64,000 bases of DNA from Planctomycetota bacterium (GCA_009773755.1 WSZJ01000008.1:9160-73159), one strand, 5' to 3'. Shown: positions 7,597-64,000, counted from the first letter of the stretch. Notes: generated by a model from the sequence alone, not told the origin. Translations and numbers: made by a program.

Positions 7597-8591
7597 GTGC
7601 GCACTCCCGGCCCTGAGCGAGCGAAGCGAAGCGCCGGATTCCCTCGCTTCGTTCTCGCGACCTGTTCCCTGAAATAAGGAAGCGTGAGTTTCAGGCCTTC
7701 CGCCCGGCTCACGCGCGGCTCCCAGTCGAGGACCTGCTTCGCCTTCGAGATGTCCGGCCTCCGCTGTTTCGGGTCGTCGACCAGCGCCGGCCTGTTCACC
7801 ACGCGGCTCTTCGACTTTGTCAACGCGATGATTTCCTCCGCGAGCCTCAGGATCGTGATCTCGACCGGGTTGCCCAGGTTGACCGGCTCGCGCTCGTCGC
7901 TCTGCAGCAGCCGGTAAATCCCGTCGATGAGGTCGCTCACGTAGCAGAAACTTCGCGTCTGCTTTCCGTCCCCGTAAATCGTGATGTCCCTTCCCCCAAG
8001 CGCCTGCCCGAAAAACTGCGGCAGCGCGCGCCCGTCGTTCAGGCGCATCCGCGGCCCGTACGTGTTGAAGATCCGCACCATCCGCGTGTCCACGCCGCGC
8101 GTCCGCCGGTACGCCATCACCAGCGCCTCGGAAAACCGCTTCGCCTCGTCGTACATGCTCCGCGGCCCGATCGGGTTCACGTGCCCCCAGTAGCTCTCGC
8201 GTTGCGGGTGCTCGAGCGGGTCGCCGTAGACCTCGCTGGTCGACGCGTGCAGGAAGCGCGCCTTCTTCTTTGCCGCGAGCAGAAGCGCGTTCTCCGTGCC
8301 GGCGCTGCCGACGCGCAGCGTCTCGACCTGCAGCCTGACGTAATCCTCGGGGGACGCGGGGCTGGCGAAATTCAGCACGGCGTCGACTTTTCCGGGGACG
8401 CTGAACGGCCGAGTGATGTCCTGCCGGATGAAGCGGAACCCCTTTGTCTTCGAGAGGTGCGCGATATTCGCGGGCGAACCGGTGAGAAAGCTGTCGACGG
8501 CCACGACCTGGTGGCCCCGCGAGAGGAACAGATCGCACAGATGCGACCCGATGAATCCGGCACCGCCGGTGATGACAACGCGCATCTGCAT
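7593..8591 (-). CDS. UDP-glucuronate decarboxylase (UDP-xylose synthase)
   Basis: Motifs [31 protein letters not shown] and [10 protein letters not shown] are typical of the UXS family. The last ~20 aa ([21 protein letters not shown]) are low complexity and encoded by a repeat arm. Confidence 0.85.
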
Positions 8592-8628
8592 TCCTGATAG
8601 GGGAACTCGCTTCGCTCGCTCGGGCCGG
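7607..8628. repeat. Inverted repeat bracketing the UDP-glucuronate decarboxylase gene
   Basis: Arm 7607-7633 (CCGGCCCTGAGCGAGCGAAGCGAAGCG) matches the reverse complement of arm 8606-8628 (CTCGCTTCGCTCGCTCGGGCCGG). The match is 15 + 7 identical nt with one 1-nt bulge. One arm lies in the 3' end of the CDS and the other in its 5' leader. Confidence 0.6.
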
Positions 8629-8672
8629 TCGAGCCGAATAGTACGCGCCGCGTCCTCGACGTCAATGCGCGC

Positions 8673-9587
8673 TTAGCGTTCCCGCTGCGCTTCGCCCCAG
8701 CGCTGCCGGAGGTCGCGCATGCGCTGGTTCAGAAAACCCTCGACGCTTCCCTCTCCTACCACGTCGTCGCCGGTGCGGTAGGCCGAAATCACCTTGCGAT
8801 TGCGTTCGACTTCGCGGCGGATTTCGGAATCTTTCAGGGGTTTGGCGAGTTCGTCAGGATTCTCGGAAGCTTTTTTTTCGTTGGAGGCTTCAAGCAGCCT
8901 GACCTGTGCCGTGCGCGCCTTCAGACATTCGCCGGAATCGGAGGCGGCGAACACCGGCTGGAGTCGATCGATGTCCTCCCGGATGGTCGCGGAAGACCAC
9001 CAGCCCGGGAGAAAATGCCGGACGACGCCCTTCGCCGTGCAGAAGTACAGGCCGATCATCCCTGTGGGGCCGGTGTCTCCCTCCTCCGTCGGCGCCGCCT
9101 TCGGGTCGCGGTCGTCCGGTGCGCCGGCGACTTCCGCGTTCCACCAGAGGAGGACGAAGCGCGCGTTGAGCGCGTTCGCAAGATCCGGGTTCGAGATCTC
9201 GCGCCTCAGGGCTTCGCCGGCCCGCGAACGTGGCGCTTCCAGGGCGCCGTCAGCGCAGACAAGGAGGATCGGCTTCCCGGCCCGCACGGCCAGTTCCATC
9301 GCCGCCTTGATCCCCGTCGCCCACTGCGGCTTGCCGATTTCAGAAAGGGCATTCTTCAGACGCATCCTGACCTCAGCATCCTTCACCTGCCCGATCTCGC
9401 GTTCGATCAGGGCACGCGCTTCCGGTCCGAGCGCAACGAGGTCCTGCTCGGCCTGCTCGCGCACGGCCCAGGCGTCGTCGGCGAGCTTCGCGAGAAGCGC
9501 CTGGAATTTCTCCTCGATGCCCGCGTCCGCGAATACCGGCATCGCGGCGGCGAACAGAAGGGGGATCGAGGCGACGAAGCGAATCAT
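8673..9587 (-). CDS. Secreted hypothetical protein
   Basis: The ATG at 9587 is preceded by GGAGG. A signal-like N-terminus (MIRFVASIPLLFAAAMPVFA) is present. No motif could be assigned with confidence. Confidence 0.55.
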   Translation of the reverse strand: MIRFVASIPLLFAAAMPVFADAGIEEKFQALLAKLADDAWAVREQAEQDLVALGPEARALIEREIGQVKDAEVRMRLKNALSEIGKPQWATGIKAAMELAVRAGKPILLVCADGALEAPRSRAGEALRREISNPDLANALNARFVLLWWNAEVAGAPDDRDPKAAPTEEGDTGPTGMIGLYFCTAKGVVRHFLPGWWSSATIREDIDRLQPVFAASDSGECLKARTAQVRLLEASNEKKASENPDELAKPLKDSEIRREVERNRKVISAYRTGDDVVGEGSVEGFLNQRMRDLRQRWGEAQRER

Positions 9588-9733
9588 GGGGCGGCCTCCG
9601 GAGTGATGTGCGGGAGCGGCTCGAGGGATCGTAGCATCGGATCCTCCGCGCGTCTTTCCCATCTATGGACGCTGCTCGGCCCGCCAAGTTCACCCGCTGG
9701 CGCGGAATCTCGATAAAATGGCGCTAGCACCCG

Positions 9734-11991: not shown

Positions 11992-12474
11992 AGCTTGGAA
12001 GGGGGGGACGTACTTTTGGCAACACGGAGGTCACGGAGTTCACGGAGGGCACAGAGGTAAGAAAACTGTGCCCTGCCAAATCCGGGGCAAGCGCGACTCC
12101 TTGGCCGTTGAGATAACGACGCAGTCCTTCGGTCAGCTTTCTGGCGTGAAAATTGATGAGAAGTCCCGCTGTGAGTTCGGAGAGATGCAGGTAGGTCAGG
12201 ATCTGGGCTTCGTGCACATCAATCAGTTCCTCAACAGCTTTGAGTTCGAGAATCAGACGCTTTTCGACGAGCAGGTCAATCCGGTAGCCTCTTCAATCGT
12301 GACGCCCTTGTACTGAACCGGAAGAACAACCTGTCGCTCGACTTTCAGGCCTCGCAACCTCAGTTCGTGTTGCAGACAGACCTCATAGGCCCCTTCAAGC
12401 AAACCGGGCCCAAGTACGCGATGGACTTCGATCGCGCCGCCGATCACTGCGTATGTCAGATCGTTGAGTTGCAT
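11951..12474 (-). pseudogene. GxxExxY-family (PD-(D/E)XK-like) gene interrupted by a 1-nt frameshift
   Basis: The N-terminal part (ATG 12474, MQLNDLTYAVIGGAIEVHRVLGPGLLEGAYEVCL...PVQYKGVTIEE) stops at 12253. The expected continuation GYRIDLLVEKRLILELKAVEELIDVHEAQILTYLHLSELTAGLLINFHARKL is in another frame (track ORF 11951-12217). The frames switch near 12262-12275. The distal ~50 codons read through the left repeat arm. Confidence 0.75.
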
Positions 12475-12511
12475 TTCTCTGTGACCTCCGTGGACTCCGT
12501 GACCTCCGTGT
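12022..12511. repeat. 35-nt inverted repeat (9-mer tandem units CACGGAGGT) bracketing the GxxExxY gene
   Basis: Arm 12022-12056 (ACACGGAGGTCACGGAGTTCACGGAGGGCACAGAG) matches the reverse complement of arm 12477-12511 at 33/35 positions. Confidence 0.9.
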
Positions 12512-25503: not shown

Positions 25504-25584
25504 TTCCGTGGGTCGCGCCCTTCGAAAGCGTCCCACGAAATCAAAGCTGACTCACCACCCGGCGGCCCGGCATAGAATCGGCGC

Positions 25585-26733: not shown

Positions 26734-26742
26734 CGCTCCTCC

Positions 26743-40711: not shown

Positions 40712-40723
40712 TTCGGACCGGCG

Positions 40724-44656: not shown

Positions 44657-44711
44657 TCTATCGAATCGGAACTCGGCAGCGAAATGGAGAAGTCCCGGCG
44701 TGGAGCTCTAC

Positions 44712-45269: not shown

Positions 45270-45326
45270 TTGAGTCTCCTTTAATTGTCTATCGATTCTT
45301 TGTGACTCTATCGATTGAGACTCAAT
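45269..45326. promoter_or_regulatory. Repeat-structured short intergenic region upstream of the ArsR-like gene (candidate operator)
   Basis: A perfect 10-nt inverted repeat ATTGAGTCTC (45269-45278) / GAGACTCAAT (45317-45326) encloses two direct copies of TCTATCGATT (45288-45297 and 45307-45316). The region is AT-rich relative to its surroundings. Confidence 0.3.
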
Positions 45327-45329
45327 AAG

Positions 45330-46677: not shown

Positions 46678-46795
46678 GCGGCGATCTCCTTAGAGTGGGG
46701 GAAGCGTAGGGCCTGACCCCATACCTCGTCAACGGCGCCGGAGTGGAAGGGTTCAAGTTGAGTATTCCCCGCCGGACGCTCATCATCTCTCCCTG

Positions 46796-47860: not shown

Positions 47861-48143
47861 GCTCAAAGCGACATAGGGCTGGAGGCGGTCTCCCGATCCT
47901 GCGAAAACAGAGGCCCCAAAAAATATTCCGCATCTGGCGCGCCGTTTGAAAACGGCAAGGAACTTGTCAGCACCCTGAACACTTCCATTGCATTTCAGGC
48001 CCTGGTTGTAACTGCGATTGACACTTTCAACGATTGTGCCACCGTTGAAAAGTCATATCATATTGTGGCGCAAGGACTTAAGAAATTTGATTGCCACGGC
48101 ACATCCCTTGCTTTAATCCTCCCTCGTCCAAGGAAACAAGCCA
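47861..48143. promoter_or_regulatory. AT-enriched 283-nt non-coding region upstream of the FHA gene (probable promoter/leader)
   Basis: G+C is clearly lower than in flanking DNA. The region contains TTGACA (about 48019) and small hairpins, including TTTCAACG...CGTTGAAA at about 48026-48051. No convincing -35/-10 pair could be fixed. Confidence 0.25.
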
Positions 48144-50078: not shown

Positions 50079-50082
50079 CCGT

Positions 50083-50264
50083 CCGTTCCCTTTCCCTTTC
50101 CCTTTCCCGTTCCCGTTCCCGACTGCGACGGCGCAGCGCGCACCCGCTTTGATCTCTCGCGCCGCAAATGACCCGACGCCCTTAATCTTCGCCGGCGTTG
50201 ACGCTTGGAGAATTCGGTGCCTTGTCGCAATCGGGAAAGGGAACGGGAAAGGGAAAGGGAACGG
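50083..50264. repeat. Inverted repeat of CCCTTT/CCCGTT hexamers with a 108-nt spacer
   Basis: The arms are 50083-50122 (CCGTTCCCTTTCCCTTTCCCTTTCCCGTTCCCGTTCCCGA) and 50231-50264 (TCGGGAAAGGGAACGGGAAAGGGAAAGGGAACGG), with 6 versus 5 units. The element lies between the FHA gene stop and the radical SAM gene start. Confidence 0.9.
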
Positions 50265-50350
50265 CACAGCCACGGCTCGCCTTGCGGAAGCCCCCCTCCC
50301 CCCTTAACATCCCCTTGGTAAAGTCTTCCCCTTCGCAAAGGTTTCCCCCG

Positions 50351-52813: not shown

Positions 52814-53919
52814 CGGCAGCCCTCGTCATCGCAGTCCTCGCCGTCGCCTTCGCGAACGGGGCCAACGACAACGTCAAGGGCGTCGCGACGATTCTCGGTT
52901 CGCGCACCGCGCGCTACCGGACCGCCATGGCGTGGGCGACGATCACGACGCTCGCCGGAGCCGTGGTGTCTATCTGGTTTGCGGAAGCGCTGTTCAAGGT
53001 CTTCGGCGGCGCGGACCTCGTCCCGGCCGGAGTTGCGGCGACGCCGGTGTTCCTGTTCAGCGCGGCGTGCGGCGCGGCGGGAGCCGTGCTCATCGCCACC
53101 GTGCTGGGCCTCCCGATTTCAACGACCCACGGCCTCATGGGCGCGCTTCTCGGCGCCGGCCTGGTCCTCGCCCCCCAGGATCTCCGCTGGAGCGTCCTCG
53201 GATCCAAGTTCGCGCTTCCCCTCGCCCTCTCCCCCGTAGCCGCCATGCTCGCGACGCTCGTCCTCTACCCGCTATTTCGCGGCGCACGCAAATCGCTCGG
53301 CGTAACGGCCGAATCCTGCGTCTGCATCGGACAGAAAGTTGTCGCGACGTGCCCGACTCCCGCCGCCGCCGTCGCTTACATGGAACAGCACGTCGTCCCC
53401 ACCCTCGAAACCGGCACCACCGCCTGCTGCACCCAGCGCTACAACGGCGCCGTCGCCGGCGTCTCCGCCCAGCAGGCCCTCGACTCCGCCCATTTCCTCA
53501 CCGCCGGAGCCATGTCCTTCGCCCGCGGCCTCAACGACGCGCCGAAAATCGCCGCGCTCGCCGTGGCCGCCAGCATCATGGGCGTTCGTGGAAGCGTCGC
53601 CCTCGTCGCCGCCGCGATGGCGGTCGGCGGGATCGCGCTCGCGAAGAAAGTCGCGCGGACGATGAGCGAGCGAGTCGCGGAGATGAACACCGGCCAGGGT
53701 TTCACCGCCTCCCTCGTCACCTCGGCGCTCGTCATCAGCGCCACCGCCTTCGGCCTCCCCGTCTCCACAACCCACGTCTCCTGCGGCGCCCTCTTCGGCA
53801 TCGGCACCGTCAACGGCTCGGCGAAGTGGAAGATGATCTGCACAATTCTGCTCGCGTGGGTGACGACTCTCCCCGTCGCGGCGCTGATCGCAATGGCGGG
53901 CGCGGCAATTCTGAAATAG
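52810..53919 (+). CDS. PiT (Pho4)-family inorganic anion transporter, divergent
   Basis: The ATG at 52810 overlaps the upstream TGA (ATGA). There are ~10 hydrophobic helices. Duplicated signature-like motifs are FANGANDNVKGVAT (N-half) and FARGLNDAPKIAAL (C-half). Confidence 0.7.
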   Translation: MTAALVIAVLAVAFANGANDNVKGVATILGSRTARYRTAMAWATITTLAGAVVSIWFAEALFKVFGGADLVPAGVAATPVFLFSAACGAAGAVLIATVLGLPISTTHGLMGALLGAGLVLAPQDLRWSVLGSKFALPLALSPVAAMLATLVLYPLFRGARKSLGVTAESCVCIGQKVVATCPTPAAAVAYMEQHVVPTLETGTTACCTQRYNGAVAGVSAQQALDSAHFLTAGAMSFARGLNDAPKIAALAVAASIMGVRGSVALVAAAMAVGGIALAKKVARTMSERVAEMNTGQGFTASLVTSALVISATAFGLPVSTTHVSCGALFGIGTVNGSAKWKMICTILLAWVTTLPVAALIAMAGAAILK

Positions 53920-53945
53920 CCGGTTCCCTGCTAGCATCGCGTCCG

Positions 53946-54551
53946 ATGAGCAGTTACGGAAATCTGAATTCGACGGAGTCGCTCGGCTCCGAACCCGATC
54001 TCGTAAGCGGGCAGCTGATCGCCTGCGGCAAATACATCGTGCCTGTCGGATGGATGTTTGCTGCGTCCTCATCGGACCGGATTCGCGGTGTCTCGCCGGA
54101 AGACGAATTCGAGTTTTTTTTCTATCGCGTTCCGAAGCAGATGGCTCTTGTCCGGCTTCAGACCGCTGTAACCACGTTGAAGAGGGACCGATATTTCTGG
54201 AGCGTATTCCACCACCTCGAAGGACTTGTAGGCGAGATCTCCGACGCGCCTCACTCTCGCCTCGAGATCGAGTTCTCGGAACTGATTGCTATGGGCCACG
54301 AGCCATTCCTCGAGCAGGCGGCGCGCGCGGTCGATGAATTGCCCAGTTTCCTTGCGTCCATTATTGCCGGGGACCGAAGCGCCGCACTCAAGCAGCTCAA
54401 CTCGCTCGAGGAATTGTGCGGAATGAAATTGACGGGGAATTCGACGACGGACGAACCGGCATGGAAGGGAGACATGAAATTCCTTGGGATTCCTACGGCC
54501 GAAGAACTCTGCCGATGGTGGGTTCGCGGTCACTTCAAATCGGAGTTCTAG
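53946..54551 (+). CDS. Hypothetical protein (201 aa)
   Basis: The ATG lies 26 nt after the PiT stop. Composition is non-biased, G+C is lower than in the neighbours, and no motif was recognised. Confidence 0.5.
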   Translation: MSSYGNLNSTESLGSEPDLVSGQLIACGKYIVPVGWMFAASSSDRIRGVSPEDEFEFFFYRVPKQMALVRLQTAVTTLKRDRYFWSVFHHLEGLVGEISDAPHSRLEIEFSELIAMGHEPFLEQAARAVDELPSFLASIIAGDRSAALKQLNSLEELCGMKLTGNSTTDEPAWKGDMKFLGIPTAEELCRWWVRGHFKSEF

Positions 54552-55285
54552 GAACGCTTGTTCGCCCCGCCCTCCGCCACCAGCTTGCTCGCGCGCAGCA
54601 GCGACTCAAAAGTCCCCGCGTCCGACCACCAGCCGTCCAACACGTCGTGCGTCATCGTCCCCTGCTCGATGTAGAAATTGTTTACGTCGGTGATCTCGAG
54701 CTCGCCGCGGCCCGACGGCTTGCAGCGCTTGATGAATTCCCACACCTGCTCGTCGTACATGTAGATTCCAATGACCGCGAATTTCGACTTCGGCTGCTTC
54801 GGCTTCTCTTCGATTTTCACGACCTGCGTCCCCTTCAACTCCGGCACGCCGAACCGCTCGGGATCCGGCACCTCCTTGAGCAGGATCTTCGCGCCCTTCG
54901 CCTGCGCCCGAAACTTCTTCACCGCTTCAGCGATGTTCCTCTCGATGATGTTGTCTCCGAGCACAACCGCGATCCGCTCCCCCTTCCCGAACTGCTCGCA
55001 GATCCCCAGCGCTTCCGCAATCCCGCCCTCGCCTTTCTGGTAGGCGTAATTGATCTGCTTCAGCCCGAATTCCTCGCCGTTGCCGAGCAGCTTCAGGAAA
55101 TCCCCCGCCGAGTTTCCGCCCGTAACGATCATGATGTCCCGGATCCCTGCGTCGACGAGCGCCTGGATCGGGTAATAGACCATCGGCTTGTTGTAGACCG
55201 GCAGGAGGTGCTTGTTGGTCACCTTGGTGAGCGGCATCATTCGGGTGCCAAGGCCGCCGGCGAGGACGATTCCTTTCACGGGCAT
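54548..55285 (-). CDS. Sugar-phosphate nucleotidyltransferase (RmlA-like, short form)
   Basis: The N-terminus KGIVLAGGLGTRMMPLTKVTNKHLLPVYNKPMVYYPIQALVDAGIRDIMIV closely follows the glucose-1-phosphate thymidylyltransferase signature. Confidence 0.85.
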   Translation of the reverse strand: MPVKGIVLAGGLGTRMMPLTKVTNKHLLPVYNKPMVYYPIQALVDAGIRDIMIVTGGNSAGDFLKLLGNGEEFGLKQINYAYQKGEGGIAEALGICEQFGKGERIAVVLGDNIIERNIAEAVKKFRAQAKGAKILLKEVPDPERFGVPELKGTQVVKIEEKPKQPKSKFAVIGIYMYDEQVWEFIKRCKPSGRGELEITDVNNFYIEQGTMTHDVLDGWWSDAGTFESLLRASKLVAEGGANKRS

Positions 55286-55355
55286 CTCCTTTTGAAGGGG
55301 CGCGAGTGTACCCGCAAGAGGAGGAACGGTTGATCGAAACGAAGCCGCGGCGGGC

Positions 55356-55718
55356 GTGGCAATGGATTCGCGCGCCGCTGATCGGGCTGGCGCTCTCGCC
55401 GACCTCGAGGCCGATGGTGGGACCGACACTCTCTCGATCGCCGACTGCCGCCAGGCGCTGGGCCGGCATGCCGAAGCCGTCAAATCCTACGACGCGTACC
55501 TTCGGCATTCCCGCTCACTCGACGTCGTCTACCGCCGGGGCGTCTCCCGCTTCGCCATCGGCGACCGCGCGGGCGCCCTGGAGGATTTTTCCCGGGCGTG
55601 TCTCGACGAAGGCTCGCCGCGGACGGCGGCAATGGACTTCATCCAGCAGCACCCCGGGGATCCCATGTCCGCCGTCCTGCAGGAAGCCCTGCGCCCGAAA
55701 CCCGAAGCCCCACGGTGA
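55356..55718 (+). CDS. Small TPR-like hypothetical protein
   Basis: 120 aa with helical-repeat-like segments (AEAVKSYDAYLRHS..., GDRAGALEDFSRACL). The start is GTG 55356 or ATG 55362. Confidence 0.4.
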   Translation: MAMDSRAADRAGALADLEADGGTDTLSIADCRQALGRHAEAVKSYDAYLRHSRSLDVVYRRGVSRFAIGDRAGALEDFSRACLDEGSPRTAAMDFIQQHPGDPMSAVLQEALRPKPEAPR

Positions 55719-55769
55719 GAACGGCATGATGCACATCTACTAATCCAGGTTCGCTTCGAAGGGGCGCGC

Positions 55770-56810
55770 GTGACCACGGAAAACCGGGAGGGATTGATCG
55801 AAACGGCTGTGCGGCGCATGCCGAAGGCGGAGATGCATTTTCATTTCGAAGGGGCGTTCCGGTGGTCGACGGTGCGCGAACTGCACCCGGACGGGCGGGC
55901 GCTCCCGGAGATCCCGCCGTGGCATGGAAAGCCCTTTGAGAACTGGGAAGCCTTCACCGCAGTCTTCAGCCAGTTCCTGAAACCCGTGACCGGCAAGCCG
56001 GAGTGGATCGAACGCCACGCGCTCGAAGCGCTCGAAGACCTCGCTCTTCAAAACGTGCGCTACGTCGAACTTCTCGTCTCGCATCGCTTCCATGCGTGGC
56101 GCGGCCTGTCCGAACGCGAGGTCTGGGAAGCGGTCGTGCGAGGCCGAGCGCGCGCGCAGGCGAAACACCGGATCGACGCGCCGCTCTTCCTGGGCGTCTC
56201 GCGCGACCAGCCACCCGAGGCGGCGGAAGCGATCTTCGAGCAAATCGCGGAATTCGCGGTGCCCGCCGGGTGGCTGAAAGGGATCGACCTGCAGAGCGAC
56301 GAGCGTGCGCGTCCGAACCGCGATTTCGCGCGGCTCTACGCGAAAGCGGCACAACTCGGGTTGAAATTGCGCGCGCACGCGGGCGAACACGGGGGAGCAG
56401 AAAACGTGCGCGACGCGGTGGATCTGTGCGGAGCCCTCCACATCTCGCACGGCACGCGCGCCGCCGAGGAGCCGGCGCTCGTCGCCTACCTGGCCCGCAC
56501 CGGCGCCTGGCTTCACCTGTGCCCGTCCAGCAACTGGCTCCTCGGAGTCTGCCCGTCCATCGCAGCCAATCCCCTTCGCAAGCTTCAAGACGCCGGCGTC
56601 CGCTGCACCGTCAACTCTGACGACCCGCTGCTCTTCGCGACCGATACGACGCGCGAGTACCTGATCGCGACAACGGAAATGGGGTTCAGCCGTTCGGAAA
56701 TCGCCGGGCTTGCGAAGAATGCTTTTGGAGCCAGTCTATTGGCCGATCGCGACATCGCGGAAGCGTGCGCCGAGATTGACCGTTGCCTCAGCACCAGGAA
56801 ATCACCATGA
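55770..56810 (+). CDS. Adenosine/adenine deaminase family amidohydrolase
   Basis: The metal-binding motif is PKAEMHFHFEGA, with HAGE and VNSDDPLLFATDTTREY near the C-terminus. The start is GTG 55770 or ATG 55818. Confidence 0.8.
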   Translation: MTTENREGLIETAVRRMPKAEMHFHFEGAFRWSTVRELHPDGRALPEIPPWHGKPFENWEAFTAVFSQFLKPVTGKPEWIERHALEALEDLALQNVRYVELLVSHRFHAWRGLSEREVWEAVVRGRARAQAKHRIDAPLFLGVSRDQPPEAAEAIFEQIAEFAVPAGWLKGIDLQSDERARPNRDFARLYAKAAQLGLKLRAHAGEHGGAENVRDAVDLCGALHISHGTRAAEEPALVAYLARTGAWLHLCPSSNWLLGVCPSIAANPLRKLQDAGVRCTVNSDDPLLFATDTTREYLIATTEMGFSRSEIAGLAKNAFGASLLADRDIAEACAEIDRCLSTRKSP

Positions 56811-56960
56811 ACTGGGGCCGCACCCGCTACCAATCGGTCGGGTCAGCGAGCTCAGGAATTCTCACGCCTTCGGCTTCGAGCACCGATTTCACTCTCGAGA
56901 GCATCTCCAGGGTCTTCACTTTCTCGAACGCACCGTACATGTCGCAGAGGCCCATGCGCG

Positions 56961-57740
56961 CTACTTCGAGAGCATTCCGGACGCCGGGCTCGACGGATTT
57001 CCTTCGAAGGACCGCTTCGGAATCCGCCCGGCCAGGAACGCCAACCGCCCGCCGATCACGCCGTGCTTCATCGCCGCCGCCATCTTCGCCGGGTCCTTCG
57101 CGTGGGCGATCCCCGTGTTGCACAGCACCCCCGCGGCGCCGAGCTCCATCGCGACAGCGACGTCGGAAGCGGTGCCGACGCCCGCGTCGACGATGACGGG
57201 GACGGCGAGTCGATGGAGGATGATCTGCAAATTGTGCGGGTTCAGGATCCCGAGCCCGCTGCCGATGAGCGACCCGAGCGGCATCACGGAAGCGCACCCC
57301 GCGTCCTGCAGCTTCAGCGCCGTCACGGGGTCGTCGCTCGTGTACGCCATCACGACGAACCCTTCCTTCACCAGCACCCGCGCCGCCTTCAGCGTCTCCT
57401 CCACGTCCGGCAGCAGCGTCTTCTCGTCCGCCAGAACCTCAAGCTTCACCAGGTCGCTCAGCCCCGCTTCCCGCCCCAGCCGCGCATAACGCAGCGCGTC
57501 ATCGGCGTTGAAGCACCCCGCGGTGTTGGGGAGGATCTTGAAGCGCTCCCGGTCGATGCGCGTGAGGATCGACTCTCTCGCCTTGAGATCGACGCGGCGC
57601 ACCGCGACTGTGACGCAATCCGCGCCCGAGGCGTCGAGCGCCGCGGCCATGACGTCGAGGGTCGCGTACTTCCCCGTCCCGACAATCAGTCGCGACCGGA
57701 ACTCGTGTTTTCCAACTTTGAAAGCATCCCCGTCGTTCAT
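56961..57740 (-). CDS. thiG: Thiazole synthase
   Basis: Motifs [23 protein letters not shown] and [13 protein letters not shown]. 259 aa. Confidence 0.95.
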
Positions 57741-57743
57741 CGA

Positions 57744-57773
57744 CCCTTTCCCTTTCCCGTTCCCTTTCCCGCC
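57744..57773. repeat. Solo CCCTTT/CCCGTT hexamer tract filling the thiS-thiG spacer
   Basis: The sequence is CCCTTTCCCTTTCCCGTTCCCTTTCCCGCC. It uses the same unit family as the arms at 50083-50264 and the tract at 63244-63279. No inverted partner lies nearby. Confidence 0.85.
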
Positions 57774-57782
57774 AATTCCCTG

Positions 57783-57983
57783 TTACCCGCCCCCGACGAA
57801 GCTCACCACCTCAACCCGGTCCCCGTCCTTCAACATCCGCCCAGCCCTCTCCGCTCTCACGACGATCTCCAGGTTGACCTCAGTCGCCACCATCGGCTCC
57901 CGGAGCCCGATCTCCCCGAGCAGTCCGTCGAGGGTCATTCCTTCGCGGACCTCTCGTTCGTCCCCGTTGAGCGTGATCTTCAC
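57783..57983 (-). CDS. thiS: Sulfur-carrier protein ThiS
   Basis: 66 aa, GTG start, ubiquitin-like pattern ending in VSFVGGG. Confidence 0.85.
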   Translation of the reverse strand: MKITLNGDEREVREGMTLDGLLGEIGLREPMVATEVNLEIVVRAERAGRMLKDGDRVEVVSFVGGG

Positions 57984-58059
57984 GCGGGAAAGTGTAAGCC
58001 GTCCCGTGCACGCCGCAAAGTCCCTGAAATCCGCCCTTGTTCCCGACTATGATTGCGCC

Positions 58060-59502
58060 ATGGATTGCAAGGGGTCCAAGAGCTGCATGAACCCGTTCGC
58101 GCCCTTCCTCCTCGCCATCATTCTCTGTTCCTGCGCCGCTCAGGAATCGCACGATGCCCTCGATTCGAAAACGTCGGAGACCCGGCGACGCATTGACGCC
58201 AGGATCGCCCGGGCGGAATCGGCAATCGCCAAATCCGTGGCGGAGTCGAACGCTTCGCCGAGCGTCGTGTCTCCCGAAAAGACGCGGGCTTCCCTCGTCG
58301 AGTACGACGCCCTGTCCGAGGTCGATCTGGTCGAGCCGGCGGAAGACGCGACCGTCTCCGGCTGGATCATTCGACTCGGCGATGCGACCGGGAGCGGATC
58401 GCGAAAGGCGTGGCAGAAACTTCTGGAGCAGGGTCTTCGAGTGGCCGGCCGTCTGCAGGAGGCGTCGCGCGAGGATTCGCTGAGCGGCATTCAGGCGTCG
58501 TCACTTCTCGACGTCATGGATCCTGAGATCACGGAGGGCTGGTGCCGCGACGGGCTCGCGGGCTGGGGGCTGATCGAAAATGGAAGCGGCTTCCTTGCCT
58601 GGACCGGCGATCCCCCTCGCACTCTCGTCCGCATTGCGACATCGAGCGGCGAGACAGTCTGGTCGGTGACCGAGCAAGCTCTTACGGACATTGTGGGAGG
58701 AAATGGCGAAATCTGGTGGAACCCAAGGCAATGCCCGGAGCTGGACTCCCTGACTCACCGGTACATTCTGGTTGATCGTGGCGCGCTTCGAATTGAGGTG
58801 GATGGAATCACCGGAAAACTCGAGGCCACTCGGGGCTTCCGACGCGATTTCGAAGTCCCGCTACCACCAGAGGTGTCGTCGGATCGCGCTTCGCTGACTC
58901 GAAGATTCTCGGACGGAGTAGTCGTAATGTGCCGCAAGGACGGCGCCTGGATCCGAAGCGCAGGCCGCTCAAGTTGGAACGACTTGACGGTTGGCTCCTA
59001 TCGAAAACATGCTCTTGACGTGGGCGTGACGCCGTTTCGCATCTTGGTTCTTTACCAGGACCGCCTACTCCTCTACGACCGAGCGAACTTCAAGTTGCTC
59101 GAAGAGACGATCCCGATCCGGGACGCCCGTTGGATGAGCGTGCAGGTTCAGGAAGGACTGGTCTTCCTCGGCGCCCCGGGGTGGACTTCGTTCGGCGTGC
59201 TCGGTGGGAGCCTCCCGCGGCCTCTCGGCCGTAGCCGCGCTTACACGGGACGGATGGTCGCGATGACCGGCGATCCGGATGGCCGCTGGGTTGCCGCGGC
59301 CGACAGAGAGGGTCTTATCCGCGTTTTCCTCGGGGCGACGCTCGAACGCATCGCGACGTTGGAAAGCGGGATGCGAATTCAGCGCCTTGAGTTCGTCGCT
59401 GATCCGCCTACGCTCGTGGCAATCTCGGCGACTTCAGATTGGCCAGAAAAGGTTCGCATTCGGACCTGGAACTTCGATGCGAGCACCACCGCCAAAAAAT
59501 GA
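58060..59502 (+). CDS. Hypothetical lipoprotein (480 aa)
   Basis: Signal peptide with a lipobox-like LAIILCSC. The C-terminal part has WD40/beta-propeller-like strands (GRWVAAADREGLIRVF). G+C is lower than in the neighbours. Confidence 0.55.
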   Translation: MDCKGSKSCMNPFAPFLLAIILCSCAAQESHDALDSKTSETRRRIDARIARAESAIAKSVAESNASPSVVSPEKTRASLVEYDALSEVDLVEPAEDATVSGWIIRLGDATGSGSRKAWQKLLEQGLRVAGRLQEASREDSLSGIQASSLLDVMDPEITEGWCRDGLAGWGLIENGSGFLAWTGDPPRTLVRIATSSGETVWSVTEQALTDIVGGNGEIWWNPRQCPELDSLTHRYILVDRGALRIEVDGITGKLEATRGFRRDFEVPLPPEVSSDRASLTRRFSDGVVVMCRKDGAWIRSAGRSSWNDLTVGSYRKHALDVGVTPFRILVLYQDRLLLYDRANFKLLEETIPIRDARWMSVQVQEGLVFLGAPGWTSFGVLGGSLPRPLGRSRAYTGRMVAMTGDPDGRWVAAADREGLIRVFLGATLERIATLESGMRIQRLEFVADPPTLVAISATSDWPEKVRIRTWNFDASTTAKK

Positions 59503-59532
59503 ACCCCGCGTCTCCGCAGGGTTTTGTTCTTC
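59502..59532 (+). terminator. Rho-independent terminator after the lipoprotein gene
   Basis: The stem AACCCCGCG (59502-59510) pairs with CGCAGGGTT (59515-59523) with one mismatch, followed by TTGTTCTTC. Confidence 0.5.
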
Positions 59533-59546
59533 GTCGTTCCTGCCTG

Positions 59547-59606
59547 CTACCTCCTACCAACTCCCCACTCCTCCCTACTCAATCCTCACCACTCCCAACT
59601 CCCAAC
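59547..59606. repeat. C/T-rich ~7-nt periodic tract (CTACCTC-like units), solo
   Basis: The sequence is CTACCTCCTACCAACTCCCCACTCCTCCCTACTCAATCCTCACCACTCCCAACTCCCAACC, in the convergent intergenic region before the rpsU stop. Its first units resemble the 26381-26405 arm. Confidence 0.7.
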
Positions 59607-59611
59607 CGGCC

Positions 59612-59821
59612 TTACCGGTAAACCTTCTTCACCTTCTTCTTCCCGATATTCCGGATGTTCTTTTCCCGCTGTTTGGCCTCACGGCGGCGCTGCTCGCTGG
59701 GCTTCTCGTAGTACGTCGAGCGCTTGATCTCTTTGAAAATTCCCGCGTCGTTGCAGATGCGCTTGAACTGTTTGAGTGCCCGATCGAGCTGGTCCTTCTT
59801 GTCGATGTTGATCTTGATCAT
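59612..59821 (-). CDS. rpsU: 30S ribosomal protein S21
   Basis: 69 aa, MIKINIDKKDQLDRALKQFKRICNDAGIFKEIKRSTYYEKPSEQRRREAK, matching the S21 pattern. Confidence 0.9.
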   Translation of the reverse strand: MIKINIDKKDQLDRALKQFKRICNDAGIFKEIKRSTYYEKPSEQRRREAKQREKNIRNIGKKKVKKVYR

Positions 59822-59853
59822 TCGCCGCCTTCGGTCCTTTCGTTGCTGGAGCT

Positions 59854-60162
59854 TCAATGGGGAGAGCGACCGCCGCCCCCGCCTTTCTGCTTGTCGAAAC
59901 AGGCGCGGCAATATACAGGCTTCTGCAGCCGGGGTACAAATGGAACTTCTGCCTCCGCCCCGCAGCCGGCGCACTTCGTCTTGTGCATCTGCTGCCCCGG
60001 CAGGAGCCCGCGCCCCTCCCGCTTCCGCTTCTCCCGGCACGGCGTGCAGCGCCGCGGCTCGTTGGCAAACCCCTTCTGCTGGTGGAACTCCTGCTCCGCA
60101 GCGGTGAAAACAAACGCCGCCCCGCAGTCCGAACAACTGAGCTGCTTGTCCTGGTAGGCCAT
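59854..60162 (-). CDS. Zinc-ribbon (double CxxC) small protein
   Basis: Motifs CSDCGAAFVFTAAEQEFHQQKGF..PRRCTPC and CAGCGAEAEVPF.P....PVYCRAC. The gene lies immediately upstream of rpsU. Confidence 0.7.
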   Translation of the reverse strand: MAYQDKQLSCSDCGAAFVFTAAEQEFHQQKGFANEPRRCTPCREKRKREGRGLLPGQQMHKTKCAGCGAEAEVPFVPRLQKPVYCRACFDKQKGGGGGRSPH

Positions 60163-60332
60163 ACAAGGACTCCCCTGATCAGTTGCACCGGCGGCGGAGT
60201 ATGCGTCAGAGTCTCCGCGCGGAGGCTGCCGTCCCTCACGGCCGCCAGCGCGACTGCCATTCCCTCCTTGGGGAGCAGGCTTGCAAGTAGCTTACGCCTT
60301 TCACGTGGCCTTAACGAAGCCCAAAAGCGCGC

Positions 60333-61205
60333 TTAGTCCGCGAGCTGCCGGAGGAGCCCGAAGCGGAGGCCGGTGGCGACGGGGACGAGGCGGTCGCGGC
60401 GGAGGTGACGGACGGCGAGGTGCACGACCGCTGCGCCGGCGGAAATGATGTCCTCGCGGCCCCACGGAACGCCGAGGCCAAGGATCTGCGGGGGAGACAG
60501 GGTGCGCAGGAGCGCAGACATCGAGGCGATGCGATCCGCGGCGAGGGGCTGGAAGGGGTCGGCCGGGTGGGCGAGCTTCGCGAGGGTGGCGACGGTCCCG
60601 CCGACGCCGATCAGCGTCCCGGGGAGATCCGGGGGGACGGAAGCGAGCGCCGCGAGGACGTGGTCTTCCAGCAGGGTCCACGAGCCTGCACGGGCGGGCC
60701 CGGCTCCGGGGAGGAAGCGCTCGCGGAGCCGGACGGCGCCGAGGGGGAGGCGGGTGGACCAGGTGACAATCTCGCCGTCGCCGGCGGTGATTTCCGCCGA
60801 GCCGCCGCCGACGTCCAGGACCACCGAAGGACCGGCCGGGAGGTTAAGCGTCCCGCCCAGCCACGAAAGACGCGCTTCCTCCTCCCCGCTCAGCACGCGC
60901 ACATCGAGGCCGCGACTCCGGCAGGCGAGAAGGAACTCGGCGGCGTTCGTCGCGTTCCGAGCCGCTTCCGTCGCGGTGACGACGGTCTGGGAAGCGCCCG
61001 CCTCGCGCGCTGTGGCGGCGAATTTCAGGGCGGCATCGATGGTGCGCACCATCGCGTCCGTCGACAGCGGCTTCCCCTCGCCGATCCCCTCTCCAAGCCG
61101 CGTGTAGGCGATTTCCTCCTTGAGCGGCGAGAGATTCCGCCCCTCGACCTTTGCCACGAGGAGCTTCACCGTGTTCGAACCGATGTCGATCGCTGCGAGG
61201 ATCAC
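60333..61205 (-). CDS. Ppx/GppA-family phosphatase (two-domain short form)
   Basis: The GTG at 61205 overlaps the mgtE stop (GTGA). Motifs AAIDIGSNTVKLLV and LDVGGGSAEI are present. Confidence 0.75.
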   Translation of the reverse strand: MILAAIDIGSNTVKLLVAKVEGRNLSPLKEEIAYTRLGEGIGEGKPLSTDAMVRTIDAALKFAATAREAGASQTVVTATEAARNATNAAEFLLACRSRGLDVRVLSGEEEARLSWLGGTLNLPAGPSVVLDVGGGSAEITAGDGEIVTWSTRLPLGAVRLRERFLPGAGPARAGSWTLLEDHVLAALASVPPDLPGTLIGVGGTVATLAKLAHPADPFQPLAADRIASMSALLRTLSPPQILGLGVPWGREDIISAGAAVVHLAVRHLRRDRLVPVATGLRFGLLRQLAD

Positions 61206-62557
61206 CCGAGGATTCTCAGGAGGGCGATCGAGCAGCCCATGTAGATGAGGGTCGCGGTGATGTCGTTGAGAGCGGTGATGAAGGGGCCTGCGGAGATGGC
61301 GGGGTCGGCCTTGAAGTGGTGGAGGATGAGGGGGAATGCGGTGCCGTTGAGTGCTGCGGCGGTGATCGCGGTGATCATCGAGATGGAGACGATGGCGCCG
61401 ATGTGCGCTGAGGCGGTGAACCAGCCCGCGGCCCCGATAAGCGCGCCGCAGACGAGGCCGATGAGGGCGCCGACGCGCGTTTCGGCGAAGAGAATCCCGA
61501 AGATCCTCGATGTTTTTATTTCTCCCGTGGCGAGACCCCGCACGACGAGCGTCGATGACTGCACCGCAACATTTCCCGCGGTCCCCATCATGACGGGGAT
61601 GAACAGCACCAGCGCGATGAACTCCAGCGGCTGCATTCCTTTGAACCAGTTCTGGATGTTCCCGACGATGAGCCCGCCCAGCAGCGGCGGGATCAGCCAC
61701 GGCATGCGCAACAGCACCCGCTTCATCACCGGGTCCGCGAACATGTTCAGCCCGCCCGCGCCGCCCATCTTCAGCAGGTCTTCCCCGGCTTCCTCGGCGA
61801 CTACCTGAAGGATCGTGTCCGCAGTAACGACGCCCAGCAGCCGCCCGTTCGCGTCCGTAACCGGAACCGCCGAGAGCGTAAACCGCCGCACGATGAGCGC
61901 CACCTCTTCCTGGTCCATCTGCGGCAGCACCGTGACCGTGTCCGGCTTCATGATGTCCGTGATCCGCGTTTCGGGCGAGGCGCGCAGCAGCGACCGGATC
62001 GACAGCACTCCCTTCAGCACTCCGGACGCATCCACCACGTAAATGTAGACCACCGTGTTCGACTGCACCGCGCCCTGCAGCGCCTTCAGCGCTTCCGTCG
62101 CCGTCGCCGTAACCGGGACTGCGACGAAATTGGTCGTCATGAGCGCGCCCGCGGTCTTCTCGCCGTACCGCAGCAGCTCCCGGACTTGCTCCTTCTGCCG
62201 CTTCGACAGGAACTCGAGCGCCGCGTCGCGCCCGTGCTCCTGCGCGATCAATCGCACCGTCGCCGCGGCGTCGTCAGCCGACATCGCGCCGAGGACTTTC
62301 TGCACGAGGTCCTGCGGAAGCGCGTTGACGACCTCTTTGGTCGCGTTGTCGTCGAGCTCCGCGAGCACGGCCGCCGCAGTCTCCATGTCGAGCAGCTTGA
62401 AGACCTGCGCCTTCTCTTCGCCGGTCAGGTCCTCGAGGATGAACGCCATGTCGACGGGATGGACGATTTCCAGCATCCCGTCCAGCTCGTCGCGCGAAAT
62501 TCCCTTTCGCTCGAGGATTGAAGCGAGTTCCTGGATGACGGCGGAGTTCTTCTCCAT
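61202..62557 (-). CDS. mgtE: Magnesium transporter MgtE
   Basis: An MgtE N-domain is followed by a CBS pair and five C-terminal TM helices with GNVAVQSS and PFITALNDITA. Confidence 0.9.
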   Translation of the reverse strand: MEKNSAVIQELASILERKGISRDELDGMLEIVHPVDMAFILEDLTGEEKAQVFKLLDMETAAAVLAELDDNATKEVVNALPQDLVQKVLGAMSADDAAATVRLIAQEHGRDAALEFLSKRQKEQVRELLRYGEKTAGALMTTNFVAVPVTATATEALKALQGAVQSNTVVYIYVVDASGVLKGVLSIRSLLRASPETRITDIMKPDTVTVLPQMDQEEVALIVRRFTLSAVPVTDANGRLLGVVTADTILQVVAEEAGEDLLKMGGAGGLNMFADPVMKRVLLRMPWLIPPLLGGLIVGNIQNWFKGMQPLEFIALVLFIPVMMGTAGNVAVQSSTLVVRGLATGEIKTSRIFGILFAETRVGALIGLVCGALIGAAGWFTASAHIGAIVSISMITAITAAALNGTAFPLILHHFKADPAISAGPFITALNDITATLIYMGCSIALLRILG

Positions 62558-62685
62558 GCAGTCCCGGGTGTGAGGCGAGGTCGGAGGAAGAAGCGGGCGG
62601 AAGCGGGCATTATGGACGGGGGGAGAGGCCCGCGCAAATCAAACGGAGAGAGATCGGATTCCTTCGTGTCCAGCGCAATGCAGCA

Positions 62686-62783
62686 GAACGAAAAACGAAA
62701 AACAAAAAACGAAAAGAAAACGACCGCGGTCGCTGTACTTTTCGTTTTTCGTTTTTCGTTTTTTGTTTTTCGTTTCGTTGTTC
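62686..62783. repeat. A/T-rich imperfect inverted repeat of CGAAAAA units
   Basis: The left arm is 62686-62716 (GAACGAAAAACGAAAAACAAAAAACGAAAAG). The right arm is 62738-62783 (CTTTTCGTTTTTCGTTTTTCGTTTTTTGTTTTTCGTTTCGTTGTTC). The ~21-nt spacer contains CGACCGCGGTCG. The element lies in the mgtE leader. Confidence 0.85.
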
Positions 62784-62803
62784 TCTGTTGCGGAATACTC
62801 AGC

Positions 62804-63193
62804 CTATTCCTTCGCCTGACCGCCTTCCTCCTCCTTCTCAAACGCGGTCGCCAGATCCCATCCTCCGTCAAAGTCCTCCCTCTTGTCTTCGTCGCGGCGT
62901 TTCATAACGCCGGCCTCGATGAGGTTGTAGACGATGTCGCCGAAGTGGCTGCTCTGCGTCACGCCCCACGCCTTGAACACCATCGGCGCCAGCCGCCCGA
63001 ATTCCTTCGCCGCCAGCCGCCGGATCCCCTCGAGCAGATCCTGCCCCGAAACGTGCTGCCGCTTCCCTTTCATCTCGTGCATCGTGTAATCGAGGCCCTG
63101 GAACGTGAACGCGTAGGCCTCGGCGGTGAAGCGCGGGTCTTTCTGGCGGATTTCGCGGAGCATCGCGGGGAAATCGGTGGTTTCTTCGGCCAT
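62804..63193 (-). CDS. Conserved-looking hypothetical protein (129 aa)
   Basis: Non-biased composition with an acidic C-terminus. The ATG lies 8 nt after the metG stop. No family could be assigned with confidence. Confidence 0.55.
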   Translation of the reverse strand: MAEETTDFPAMLREIRQKDPRFTAEAYAFTFQGLDYTMHEMKGKRQHVSGQDLLEGIRRLAAKEFGRLAPMVFKAWGVTQSSHFGDIVYNLIEAGVMKRRDEDKREDFDGGWDLATAFEKEEEGGQAKE

Positions 63194-63201
63194 GACTCCC
63201 T

Positions 63202-64000
63202 CTATTTCGACTTCCCCTCGGCCCCGCCTTGATCCGCGCCGTTGCCTTTCCCTTTCCCTTTCCCTTGCCCTTTCCCGCCCGCCTCTTTCTTCTCCGTCTC
63301 GATTCTGGGAAACAGGACCGCCCCCTCCCTGACTTTATGCCCCGCCGGCAGCGCCTCCCACTTCCCCGGCAGCCGCTCCGGTTTCGCCGGCAATCCGAGT
63401 TGCTCCCGGATTTTCTCCGCTGTCGAGGGCAGGAACGGGTGCAGAAGCGCCGAAATCCGCCCGATCGCCGTCGCCAGGTTCGTCATCACGGCCGCCACGC
63501 GCCCGGCCTTCCCCAGCTTGTTCAGCGCCCAGGGCTGGCTTTCCTCGATGTACGAATTCGAGCGGCGGACCGCATCCCAGATCCTCGTCAGCGCGCCGCT
63601 CAGGTCCTGCTTATCCATCAGCGCCGCAACCTCGTTCGAACACGCTTCCATGTGCGCCACCAGATCCGCGTCGGTCCCGCCCGGCTCCGTCGTCGCGGGC
63701 ACGGCCCCGCCGCAGTACGTGTTCACCATCTTCAGCGTGCGGTGCAGCAGGTTTCCGATGTCGTTCGCGAGATCCGCGTTGTAGCGCGCGATGAACGAAT
63801 TCCACGTGAAGTCCCCGTCGCGGTCCCACGCGATCTCGCGCAGCAGGAAATACCGGAGCGCGTCCGCCCCGTGCGGCTCGATGACGTCGAACGGATCCAG
63901 CAGGTGCCCCGTCGACTTCGACATCTTTTCGCCCTCGTAGTGCACCCAGCCGTGCCCCCAGACCTGTCTGGGAAGCGGAACTCCGGCGGACAGGAGCATT
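63202..64000 (-). CDS. metG: Methionine--tRNA ligase, 5'-partial in this window (N-terminus lies beyond nt 64000)
   Basis: The KMSKS motif and anticodon-binding helices (NDIGNLLHRT..., QPWAL) are present. The normal end LFPRIE is followed by a repeat-encoded tail TEKKEAGGKGQGKGKGKGNGADQGGAEGKSK. Confidence 0.9.
   Translation of the reverse strand, partial: MLLSAGVPLPRQVWGHGWVHYEGEKMSKSTGHLLDPFDVIEPHGADALRYFLLREIAWDRDGDFTWNSFIARYNADLANDIGNLLHRTLKMVNTYCGGAVPATTEPGGTDADLVAHMEACSNEVAALMDKQDLSGALTRIWDAVRRSNSYIEESQPWALNKLGKAGRVAAVMTNLATAIGRISALLHPFLPSTAEKIREQLGLPAKPERLPGKWEALPAGHKVREGAVLFPRIETEKKEAGGKGQGKGKGKGNGADQGGAEGKSK
63244..63279. repeat. CCCTTT-type hexamer tract inside the 3' end of metG
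   Basis: The sequence is GCCTTTCCCTTTCCCTTTCCCTTGCCCTTTCCCGCC. It is translated on the minus strand as GKGQGKGKGKG. Confidence 0.85.

Follow-up and report, generated by a model that had tools for sequence, protein, structure and literature searches.

Tandem-repeat inverted repeats between genes of a Planctomycetota bacterium, and a repeat-bracketed GxxExxY gene module in several phyla

Inverted repeats whose arms are built from short tandem units lie between the genes of a Planctomycetota bacterium represented by a metagenome bin (GCA_009773755.1). We analysed a stretch of 64,000 nucleotides of this genome (WSZJ01000008.1:9160-73159; the whole stretch is called the window here) and find that these long, hairpin-forming repeats are real and common, with six strong inverted pairs and one weak pair where an original prediction had placed them. 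The most interesting result is a conserved, covarying tandem-repeat stem around genes of the GxxExxY family across phyla, one member of which lies in the window; the second is a comparative series that follows the birth of a hairpin. The explanation that we hold to be somewhat more probable than its negation combines local birth of tandem tracts and their inverted copying, a separate GxxExxY module at one site, and a likely action of the stems in transcripts.

Inverted tandem-tract pairs in the window

GC content is 61–69% along the window and 66% in the genome. The window was compared with five to seven syntenic relatives, the nearest of which are metagenome-assembled genomes (MAGs) labelled Planctomycetota, Planctomycetia or Brocadiia; L-numbers denote relatives' or homologous loci compared with the window, the synteny of L003–L007 spans window 28–56 kb, and the DNA sampled comprises ~64 kb of this genome and ~250 kb of relatives. 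The original prediction had described seven loci of one design, each with an arm of tandem oligomers paired with its reverse complement. Our own inverted-repeat finder (arms of at least 24 nt, at least 85% complementary and at most 1.5 kb apart) returned seven entries at six loci, whereas the average over 20 dinucleotide shuffles was 0.2. Tandem Repeats Finder recovered the predicted repeat units. Both the shared design and the excess of inverted pairs over chance were thereby borne out, with site A as the weak member:

Site A, 8606-8621 against 7613-7631, weak pair with 15 of 16 positions matching, plus a local hairpin at 7613-7656
Site B, 12022-12056 and 12477-12511, arms of 35 nt, 94% complementary
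Site C, 25892-25925 and 26378-26411, arms of 34 nt, 94% complementary
Site D, G-rich array at 34578-34699 against 34734-34775, 27–32 nt, 84–89% complementary
Site E, 38699-38732 and 38808-38841, arms of 34 nt, 91% complementary, in an entire stem of ~51 nt
Site F, 50083-50138 and 50215-50264, 41–50 nt, 86–88% complementary
Site G, 62687-62716 and 62738-62775, arms of 30 nt, 93% complementary

The pairs are inverted, and dispersed direct copies of tracts occur inside D only, so that the window lacks the direct 24–40-nt repeats with unique spacers that mark CRISPR arrays. No common consensus emerged when the inverted pairs of the window were compared. The prediction was right to set these loci apart from CRISPR arrays, and for the arms of the window its denial of a single repetitive extragenic palindromic (REP)-type consensus agrees with this comparison. 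Its statement that the unit differs from locus to locus agrees with the units found, except that the unit at B is typical of the GxxExxY gene family, and the CGCTT/CGCT pair given as 7607/8606 exists as an inverted match of only 16 nt accompanied by a local hairpin. When the arm pairs were folded, as the prediction had proposed, all hairpins gave z scores between −3.7 and −12, apart from the local A hairpin (0.2) and the minus strand of D (−1.4). Rfam covariance models at the gathering score had no match in the window, and none in B at E ≤ 1; a scan of eight GxxExxY loci gave only sub-threshold miRNA-hairpin noise, and we found no rRNA, tRNA or tmRNA in the window.

The repeats occur in a metagenome bin, short-read contigs break at arms and contigs with mgtE are very short, all of which could make assembly artefacts of them. 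We give this possibility practically no weight. An independent ENA contig is 100% identical to the window over 13 kb, through the F hairpin and two solo tracts, MAGs from other studies carry hairpins at orthologous sites, and the same design is found in finished plasmids of cultured bacteria. We reject the assembly artefact that the prediction had named as a ground for its own refutation. A Logan contig covers exactly 38705-50115, ending inside an arm of E and inside an arm of F. Short-read contigs of the window lineage tend to stop at or near hairpins, and the mgtE orthologues lie on contigs of only 1.7–1.9 kb (L002 ends, L115, proteins P0241 and P0242).

Elsewhere in the phylum, 1.2 Mb of other Planctomycetota lysS loci contained 19 comparable inverted repeats, seven of them with tandem arms and several directly following lysS. 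Because of these 19 repeats we regard the hairpin design as phylum-wide, and it is about tenfold denser in the window.

A decaying GxxExxY element at site B

Site B differs in kind from the other hairpins of the window. It is an element of ~0.5 kb made of an arm, a GxxExxY gene and a second arm, flanked by convergent recQ and pilin-like genes:

12022-12056, minus strand, 3′ arm, reading CTCTGTGCCCTCCGTGAACTCCGTGACCTCCGTGT on the sense strand
12090-12478, minus strand, GxxExxY pseudogene (TIGR04256 / PF13366, PD-(D/E)XK), frameshifted near 12289
12477-12511, minus strand, 5′ arm ACACGGAGGTCACGGAGTCCACGGAGGTCACAGAG, abutting the ATG and carrying the family-typical tandem CRCRGAGG motif

The encoded protein matches TIGR04256 at 6.9e-43 and PF13366 at 1.1e-41. 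In three relatives (L085, L086, L088) the site is empty, with the stop codons of recQ and the pilin-like gene 0–10 nt apart and no hairpin between them; insertion of the element into a pre-existing hairpin was accordingly rejected for B. A fourth locus, L083 (RecQ 87% identical), holds the same arms with only the first ~100 nt of the open reading frame (ORF), a dead element whose arms are decaying. Because L083 shares the arms and a truncated ORF while the other three sites are empty, the arm–gene–arm unit is best read as having been inserted once, in an ancestor common to two lineages, and as decaying in both.

A tandem-repeat stem around GxxExxY genes of several phyla

Relatives of GxxExxY proteins are known from hairpin loops of 23S rRNA. 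The CACGGAGG arms of B are shared beyond this locus, since the same CRCRGAGG / CCTCYGYG arms accompany GxxExxY genes of several phyla; the predicted absence of a conserved terminal sequence is therefore wrong for B. A metagenome scan with the frameshift-repaired B protein gave 20 loci of 35–64% GC, in which nearly all full-length GxxExxY genes are bracketed by inverted arms. The 5′ arm consists of purine-rich tandem CACAGAG, CGCAGAG, CACGGAG or CACAGAT units directly before the start codon, and the 3′ arm, its complement, lies 3–20 nt past the stop codon. Bracketing inverted repeats were significant at 9 of 15 metagenome loci (200 shuffles). At least two CRCRRAK motifs in sense orientation upstream together with at least two in antisense downstream were present at 12 of the 20 loci and in none of 20,000 random window pairs. 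The same arm design recurs in finished plasmids of Bacteroides finegoldii, Bernardetia, Gemmatirosa and Sphingomonas, inside operons such as fabD–fabG; the B. finegoldii element lies between radA and an FAD-dependent gene. Other Planctomycetota have gene-less CRCRGAG hairpins and solo arrays.

Covariation was examined in five metagenome loci that carry intact ORFs between the same two ABC-permease genes, together with a sixth element from another context (L100). In these six elements, 84.8% of a 40-bp stem that reaches across the ~390-nt ORF is paired; sliding the partner lowers this to 43–58%. Changes on both sides affect 11 of the 40 pairs, against 6.2 ± 1.6 in shuffles (1 of 500) and 0–3 when slid. 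This covariation around intact ORFs supports a long-range stem enclosing the GxxExxY cistron and, because the arms covary, such a stem would matter for the class. G·U and A·C mismatches are balanced in the stems and are uninformative on the acting strand. Literature searches found no published description of arms flanking GxxExxY genes, and nothing specific on hairpins of Planctomycetes; the repeat arms seem to be undescribed so far.

Two individual loci are worth recording. In the Sphingomonas parapaucimobilis plasmid (L119, 482837-483265), a GxxExxY gene with CGCGAAG-type upstream repeats lies between fabD and fabG in an essential fatty-acid synthesis operon. At L110 (2054-2854), a tandem fusion of two GxxExxY domains (266 amino acids) is bracketed by a 31-nt inverted repeat.

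Probable stepwise arm birth at site C

At site C, arms enclose a gene for a 126-amino-acid membrane protein that is flanked by a convergent ABM gene and a gene for 102 amino acids; neither the 126- nor the 102-amino-acid protein has a match in Pfam or NCBIfam:

25892-25925, minus strand, 3′ arm, C-rich on the sense strand, between two convergent stop codons
25937-26317, minus strand, resident 126-amino-acid membrane-protein gene
26378-26411, minus strand, 5′ arm, G-rich with GGTAGG-type units, overlapping the end of the ABM gene

The 126-amino-acid gene is kept in place in four relatives (L089, L090, L091, L112), and its arrival as an inserted cassette was rejected on that ground. Both arms are missing from L090 and L091. 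The G-rich 5′ tract has a homologue in L089, where the 3′ end offers only a 22-nt spacer. The 3′ arm thus measures 0 nt in L089, ~13 nt in L112 (91.6% identical to the window in nucleotides) and 34 nt in the window, with 94–97% complementarity. Such a series is the trace that inverted copying from a local donor would be expected to leave. The 5′ arm lies upstream of a conserved TAGAAT −10 box of the enclosed gene (26330-26345, minus strand).

Turnover of both arms downstream of lysS

The stem at site E would represent a later stage, in which arms are exchanged:

38682-38858, minus strand, stem of ~51 bp with a 75-nt loop, between the lysS stop codon and the start of an FtsX-like gene

Read along the sense strand, the C-rich arm precedes the G-rich one, which is the closer of the two to the downstream gene; the fold has a z score of about −9 to −10. 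The unit is AAATCCC in the window, CGAAAAA/GGAAAAA in L003, L004 and L006, and GGATAGG in L005, while L007 has neither spacer nor hairpin, its lysS stop codon overlapping the next start (TGATG). Each of the five genomes with the stem keeps 80–86% arm complementarity over 45–56 nt. The same arm is only 22–61% identical between the window and the other genomes, and the flanking genes have diverged to ~70–87% nucleotide identity. Homology among the window, L003 and L004 covers the outer ~19 nt (GGGAAAACGAC... / ...GTTGCCGTTTTTCC) of the stem. Because the outer stem is homologous and the inner arms are this dissimilar yet complementary, we read site E as one stem that has outlasted the joint replacement of its two inner arms, on two or more occasions.

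The FtsX-like gene after lysS apparently starts at CTG in four genomes (at ~38655 on the minus strand of the window, ~11953 in L003, ~11770 in L004 and ~11908 in L006), at GTG in L005 and at ATG in L007, with a conserved AGGAG 8–12 nt upstream, which points to a non-canonical start codon. Beside lysS, a TPR-like gene for 1,310 amino acids (40724-44656, minus strand) is without counterpart in the alignments of L003, L004, L006 and L007, which jump from ~45.4–44.7 kb to ~40.7–40.4 kb; L005 has partial matches to it.

A resident epimerase gene between the arms of site A

At site A the purine tract and its inverted copy lie on either side of one gene:

7593-8591, minus strand, resident NAD-dependent epimerase/dehydratase gene bracketed by the A arms
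7613-7656, minus strand, 3′ hairpin with CGCTTCGCTTCGCTCGCTC on the sense strand, reverse complement of the 5′ arm (15/16)
8606-8621, minus strand, 5′ arm, purine tract GAGCGAGCGAAGCGAG in the 5′ untranslated region (UTR) of the epimerase/decarboxylase gene

The 5′ arm lies 14 nt before the ATG and downstream of a conserved promoter-like box, TTGACG-17-TACTAT (8629-8657, minus strand); such boxes are conserved in four to five genomes and help to tell which arms are transcribed. The 3′ hairpin sits in an in-frame insertion of ~33 nt within the last codons of the gene, its local fold is weak, and CGCTTCGCTTCGCTCGCTC is also the reverse complement of an adjacent ancestral purine stretch, GCGAGAACGAAGCG. 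The 5′-UTR tract is absent from L083, L085, L086 and L088, and both it and the inverted copy are specific to the window among the relatives compared. By tblastn the enclosed gene is the orthologue of the relatives' first epimerase gene (86–90% amino-acid identity), and we rejected the idea that it is an inserted cassette. Of the three pairs predicted to enclose a complete gene each, those at A and C do so around resident genes, and the GxxExxY gene at B is frameshifted.

Short-loop hairpins, solo tracts and hairpins of relatives

The remaining hairpins occupy single spacers:

34578-34775, site D, no strand assigned, GCGGGCRR array at 34586-34699 with a complementary arm at 34734-34775
50083-50264, plus strand, site F, CCCTTT/CCCGTT arm 5 nt past the stop codon of an FHA gene, pairing with a GGGAAA arm
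62687-62775, minus strand, site G, A-rich and T-rich CGAAAAA arms around a GC-rich core at 62719-62734

The squalene/phytoene-synthase and ahpC genes diverge from the spacer that holds D, which adjoins the ahpC promoter (34774-34802). A hairpin stands at this position also in L003 and L006, with a different arm sequence in L006, and none in L007. The GGGAAA arm of F is 85 nt before a radical-SAM gene. G lies between the stop codon of a Minf_1886-family gene and the mgtE promoter and is absent from L113 and L114; its core (62734-62719) matches the pattern of an intrinsic terminator. F and G are confined to the window lineage among the genomes compared.

Solo arms had been predicted at 57744, 59547 and 63244. 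Tracts are present at all three places, the last of them lying in frame inside the 3′ end of metG:

57744-57770, minus strand, solo tract with GGGAAAGGGAACGGGAAAGGGAAAGGG on the sense strand, ending 3 nt before the thiG ATG in the thiS–thiG spacer
59547-59606, minus strand, purine-rich solo tract in the 3′ UTR of rpsU, followed by a conserved canonical terminator at 59523-59502
63245-63276, minus strand, solo hexamer tract in frame inside the metG 3′ end, giving a GK-rich GKGQGKGKGKGNG tail

The metG tail tract is absent from relatives. The rpsU 3′ UTR has purine tandem tracts with three different units in three genomes, at the same position before the conserved terminator. At places that are plain spacer in the window, L003 carries hairpins of its own; in one of these (L003, 16201-16298) the G-rich 3′ arm is homologous to a solo GGTTAAGG tract in L091, directly before the ATG of the same gene. 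Because L091 holds this solo homologue, the tract would be older than its inverted partner. Taken with the rpsU tracts, this suggests that tandem purine tracts are long-lived in particular spacers, that their units turn over fast and that inverted partners are added later. Unit families are also found again at sites unrelated to one another, CGAAAAA forming arms of G in the window and of E in relatives, and CCCTTT occurring at three sites.

Sites of the canonical terminator type, with a GC stem and a T run, reach about half of their number in shuffles, with 5 against 10.7 in 49500-64000 and 5 against 12.2 in 25500-39500. L004 (640-726) and L006 (2714-2800) share a near-perfect, non-tandem palindromic hairpin of 40–43 nt (ACGCGGAAACGCGCGGGAAC..., z = −12) at one orthologous site, equivalent to ~53.9–54.5 kb of the window. 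At 46024 of the window, the otherwise identical Logan contig (L002, 7321-7368) has 48 extra bases (TTTTCATTTCACTTCGAATTCAATGACC...) at the junction of a HAD-hydrolase gene and a gene for 232 amino acids, which reflects an indel between strains or else a small deletion in the window assembly.

Comparison with known systems

B and the other GxxExxY loci share the anatomy of the intervening sequences (IVSs) of 23S rRNA in Coxiella, Leptospira and Salmonella, including an ORF family that is reported from IVSs and prone to decay. In Coxiella the IVS is 428 nt long; its decaying ORF is enclosed by a terminal stem of 28 bp, within which RNase III cuts (PMC4990558). B likewise combines an IVS-associated ORF family (GxxExxY / four-helix-bundle) with an enclosing stem of at least 20 bp (35-nt arms, 94%). 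In contrast to an IVS, B lies between two protein-coding genes, recQ and the pilin-like gene, and not in a 23S rRNA helix such as 9, 25 or 45; the GxxExxY arms are tandem CRCRGAGG oligomers conserved across phyla, and cutting by RNase III is proposed here by analogy.

The loci also resemble REP elements, their hairpin-forming doublets (REPINs) and the REP-associated tyrosine transposases (RAYTs), being intergenic hairpins of two inverted short repeats, with a gene flanked by a repeat that is also found gene-less elsewhere. However, the GxxExxY gene belongs to the PD-(D/E)XK fold (PF13366) and not to the IS200/IS605-like Y1 transposases, and the arms are tandem oligomers that share no consensus in the window, with CRCRGAG arrays recurring in other genomes. 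The solo tracts at 57744 and in L091 have the form of the tandem heptamers of Beggiatoaceae (TAACTGA) and of the cyanobacterial short tandemly repeated repetitive (STRR) sequences, which are concentrated in spacers, often end before start codons and are of unknown function (PMC4679880). Like these, the window tracts are tandem 6–9-mers in spacers near start codons. Unlike them, the units vary by site and between close relatives, differ from the published consensuses, and most tracts have an inverted partner, whereas only 1 of 170 repeat sets was inverted in BOGUAY (PMC4679880).

Hairpins of G and, in L003, L004 and L006, of E resemble bidirectional intrinsic terminators in their GC-rich core, A-rich 5′ arm and U-rich 3′ arm after a stop codon, but their A/U arms are 30–50 nt of tandem CGAAAAA units. 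Among the hairpins of the window the canonical pattern of GC stem and U tract is found at G only, D, E, F and A–C being without a U tract. Integron attC sites share with the pairs imperfect inverted repeats of variable sequence and conserved structure at the ends of promoterless genes. The arms contain no R″/R′ core (RYYYAAC / GTTRRRY), there is no integrase or cassette array, the neighbours are housekeeping genes and the genes at A and C are resident. As for miniature inverted-repeat transposable elements (MITEs), the filled/empty junctions of B, E and the L003 site showed neither shared termini nor a target-site duplication, and we saw no near-identical copies in the DNA examined.

Origin of the tracts and stems

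In the explanation we favour, purine-rich tandem 6–9-mers would arise and quickly change unit at gene boundaries of this Planctomycetota clade, be it in a trailer, in a spacer or in a leader immediately ahead of the start codon, with replication slippage as the simplest cause. A tract would then be copied as its reverse complement to a place between 21 nt and ~1 kb away, for which replication template switching is the simplest cause, and this would yield a stem of 30–55 bp, whose arms would then stay complementary while their sequence shifts, through selection on the stem or arm-to-arm copying. Short-range copies would give the hairpins D, E, F and G, and copies in the next spacer would bracket a resident gene, as at A and C. 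B would be an insertion of ~0.5 kb comprising a GxxExxY gene, (CRCRGAGG)n directly before its start and (CCTCYGYG)n just after its stop, a module that lies often inside operons, in several phyla, and would behave like an rRNA intervening sequence outside rRNA. The window loci would then be alike in look and not in origin. Slippage and template switching are, we infer, the simplest mechanism for tracts and inverted copies. Template switching creates hairpin arms and maintains or homogenizes them (PMC8794818, PMC10710096, PMC8604942), leaving a lineage-specific local reverse-complement copy, homogenized arms and then apparent compensatory change, as seen here; the window differs in its distances of up to 0.45–1 kb and in its tandem-repeat donors.

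Several rival explanations were weighed. All hairpins could be copies of mobile, non-autonomous palindromic elements (MITE- or REPIN-like) served by an enzyme encoded elsewhere, their locus-specific look being due to the small sample. Presence/absence differences between close relatives (E, where L007 is empty; F; G; the L003-only hairpins), the same unit families at unrelated sites and in unrelated genomes, the gene-less CRCRGAG hairpins and solo arrays of other Planctomycetota, and GxxExxY genes flanked by an inverted dispersed repeat much as RAYT genes are flanked by REP would all fit mobility. We nevertheless consider it quite improbable, given an arm at C that grows stepwise from a pre-existing local tract, solo tracts that predate inverted partners, an outer stem at E kept while inner arms were replaced, arms without a consensus in the window, and filled/empty junctions that lack shared termini and target-site duplications. 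A related proposal of the original prediction, that pre-existing hairpins are insertion targets for gene cassettes, with gene-enclosing pairs filled and short-loop pairs empty, can appeal to the residence of GxxExxY relatives in rRNA hairpin loops and to the replaced inner stem of E, which nested insertion could also give. The alignment of orthologous loci that it called for did reveal both filled and empty sites at B, E and G, as well as the compensatory changes of the GxxExxY arms. Yet the proposal is very unlikely and is refuted at A, B and C: the empty B sites have no hairpin and stop codons 0–10 nt apart, the genes at A and C are resident orthologues, and the arms of B travel with the gene, being conserved together with it across phyla.

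That slippage and template switching in unconstrained spacers produced the tracts and inverted copies as neutral by-products, functionless in RNA or DNA, is in our view unlikely, though a number of observations agree with it: fast unit turnover, the position of D between divergent promoters, the lack of a G·U bias towards the sense strand, the decaying arms of the dead L083 element and a tract tolerated in frame inside metG. Neutrality accords poorly with GxxExxY arms that covary around intact ORFs, with an E stem kept in five genomes at 80–86% while the flanking genes diverged, with arms placed at cistron boundaries at A, B and C, and with A/T-rich arms of 30–40 nt at terminator positions (G; E in relatives), which would be hard to keep without selection in a genome of 66% GC.

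Possible action of the stems

In transcripts the stems would be long duplexes that could serve as RNase III substrates or as exonuclease blocks, and the stem could hide the Shine–Dalgarno-like GGAGG repeats of the GxxExxY 5′ arm. The prediction of a long-range RNA stem that loops out a cistron finds support for the GxxExxY class only, through its pairing and covariation. Elsewhere, an RNA role is plausible at G, as a terminator core, and at A, whose 5′ arm falls within the 5′-terminal part of the predicted transcript. We doubt such a role for D and for the C 5′ arm.

Several points weigh against the favoured explanation. D and the C 5′ arm are upstream of the nearest recognizable promoters, so that an RNA role there would need read-through transcription, and the better fold at E, F and G is that of the antisense strand. 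Because the G·U and A·C mismatches in GxxExxY stems are balanced, the stem may act as sense RNA, antisense RNA or single-stranded DNA. The copying distance of 0.45–1 kb exceeds the usual range of template switching, the recurrence of unit families at unrelated sites could point to mobile elements, and the sample is limited to the DNA of this genome and of relatives given above.

Implications

For genome annotation, the arms fragment short-read assemblies and add spurious low-complexity tails to ORFs, which affects MAGs. The 0/~13/34-nt series at C, together with the arm replacement after lysS, is a rare case in which the birth and maintenance of hairpins can be followed as a natural time course, and it bears on the origin of structured RNA elements and terminators.

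A wider reading, which we offer tentatively and rate as somewhat unlikely, is that GxxExxY genes with tandem CRCRGAGG / CCTCYGYG arms are an undescribed cross-phylum module. It may be either a self-insulating 'IVS outside rRNA', whose stem would be processed in RNA, or a REP/RAYT-like system, whose nuclease-fold protein would recognize the repeats and seed gene-less hairpins; more broadly, Planctomycetota may repeatedly evolve stems that bracket single resident cistrons (A, C) as post-transcriptional control or insulation. GxxExxY proteins are abundant, often present in multiple copies and of unknown role. The covarying repeat stem is a first concrete handle on the module, ties the copies outside rRNA to rRNA intervening sequences and makes the module testable in cultured Bacteroides or Sphingomonas.

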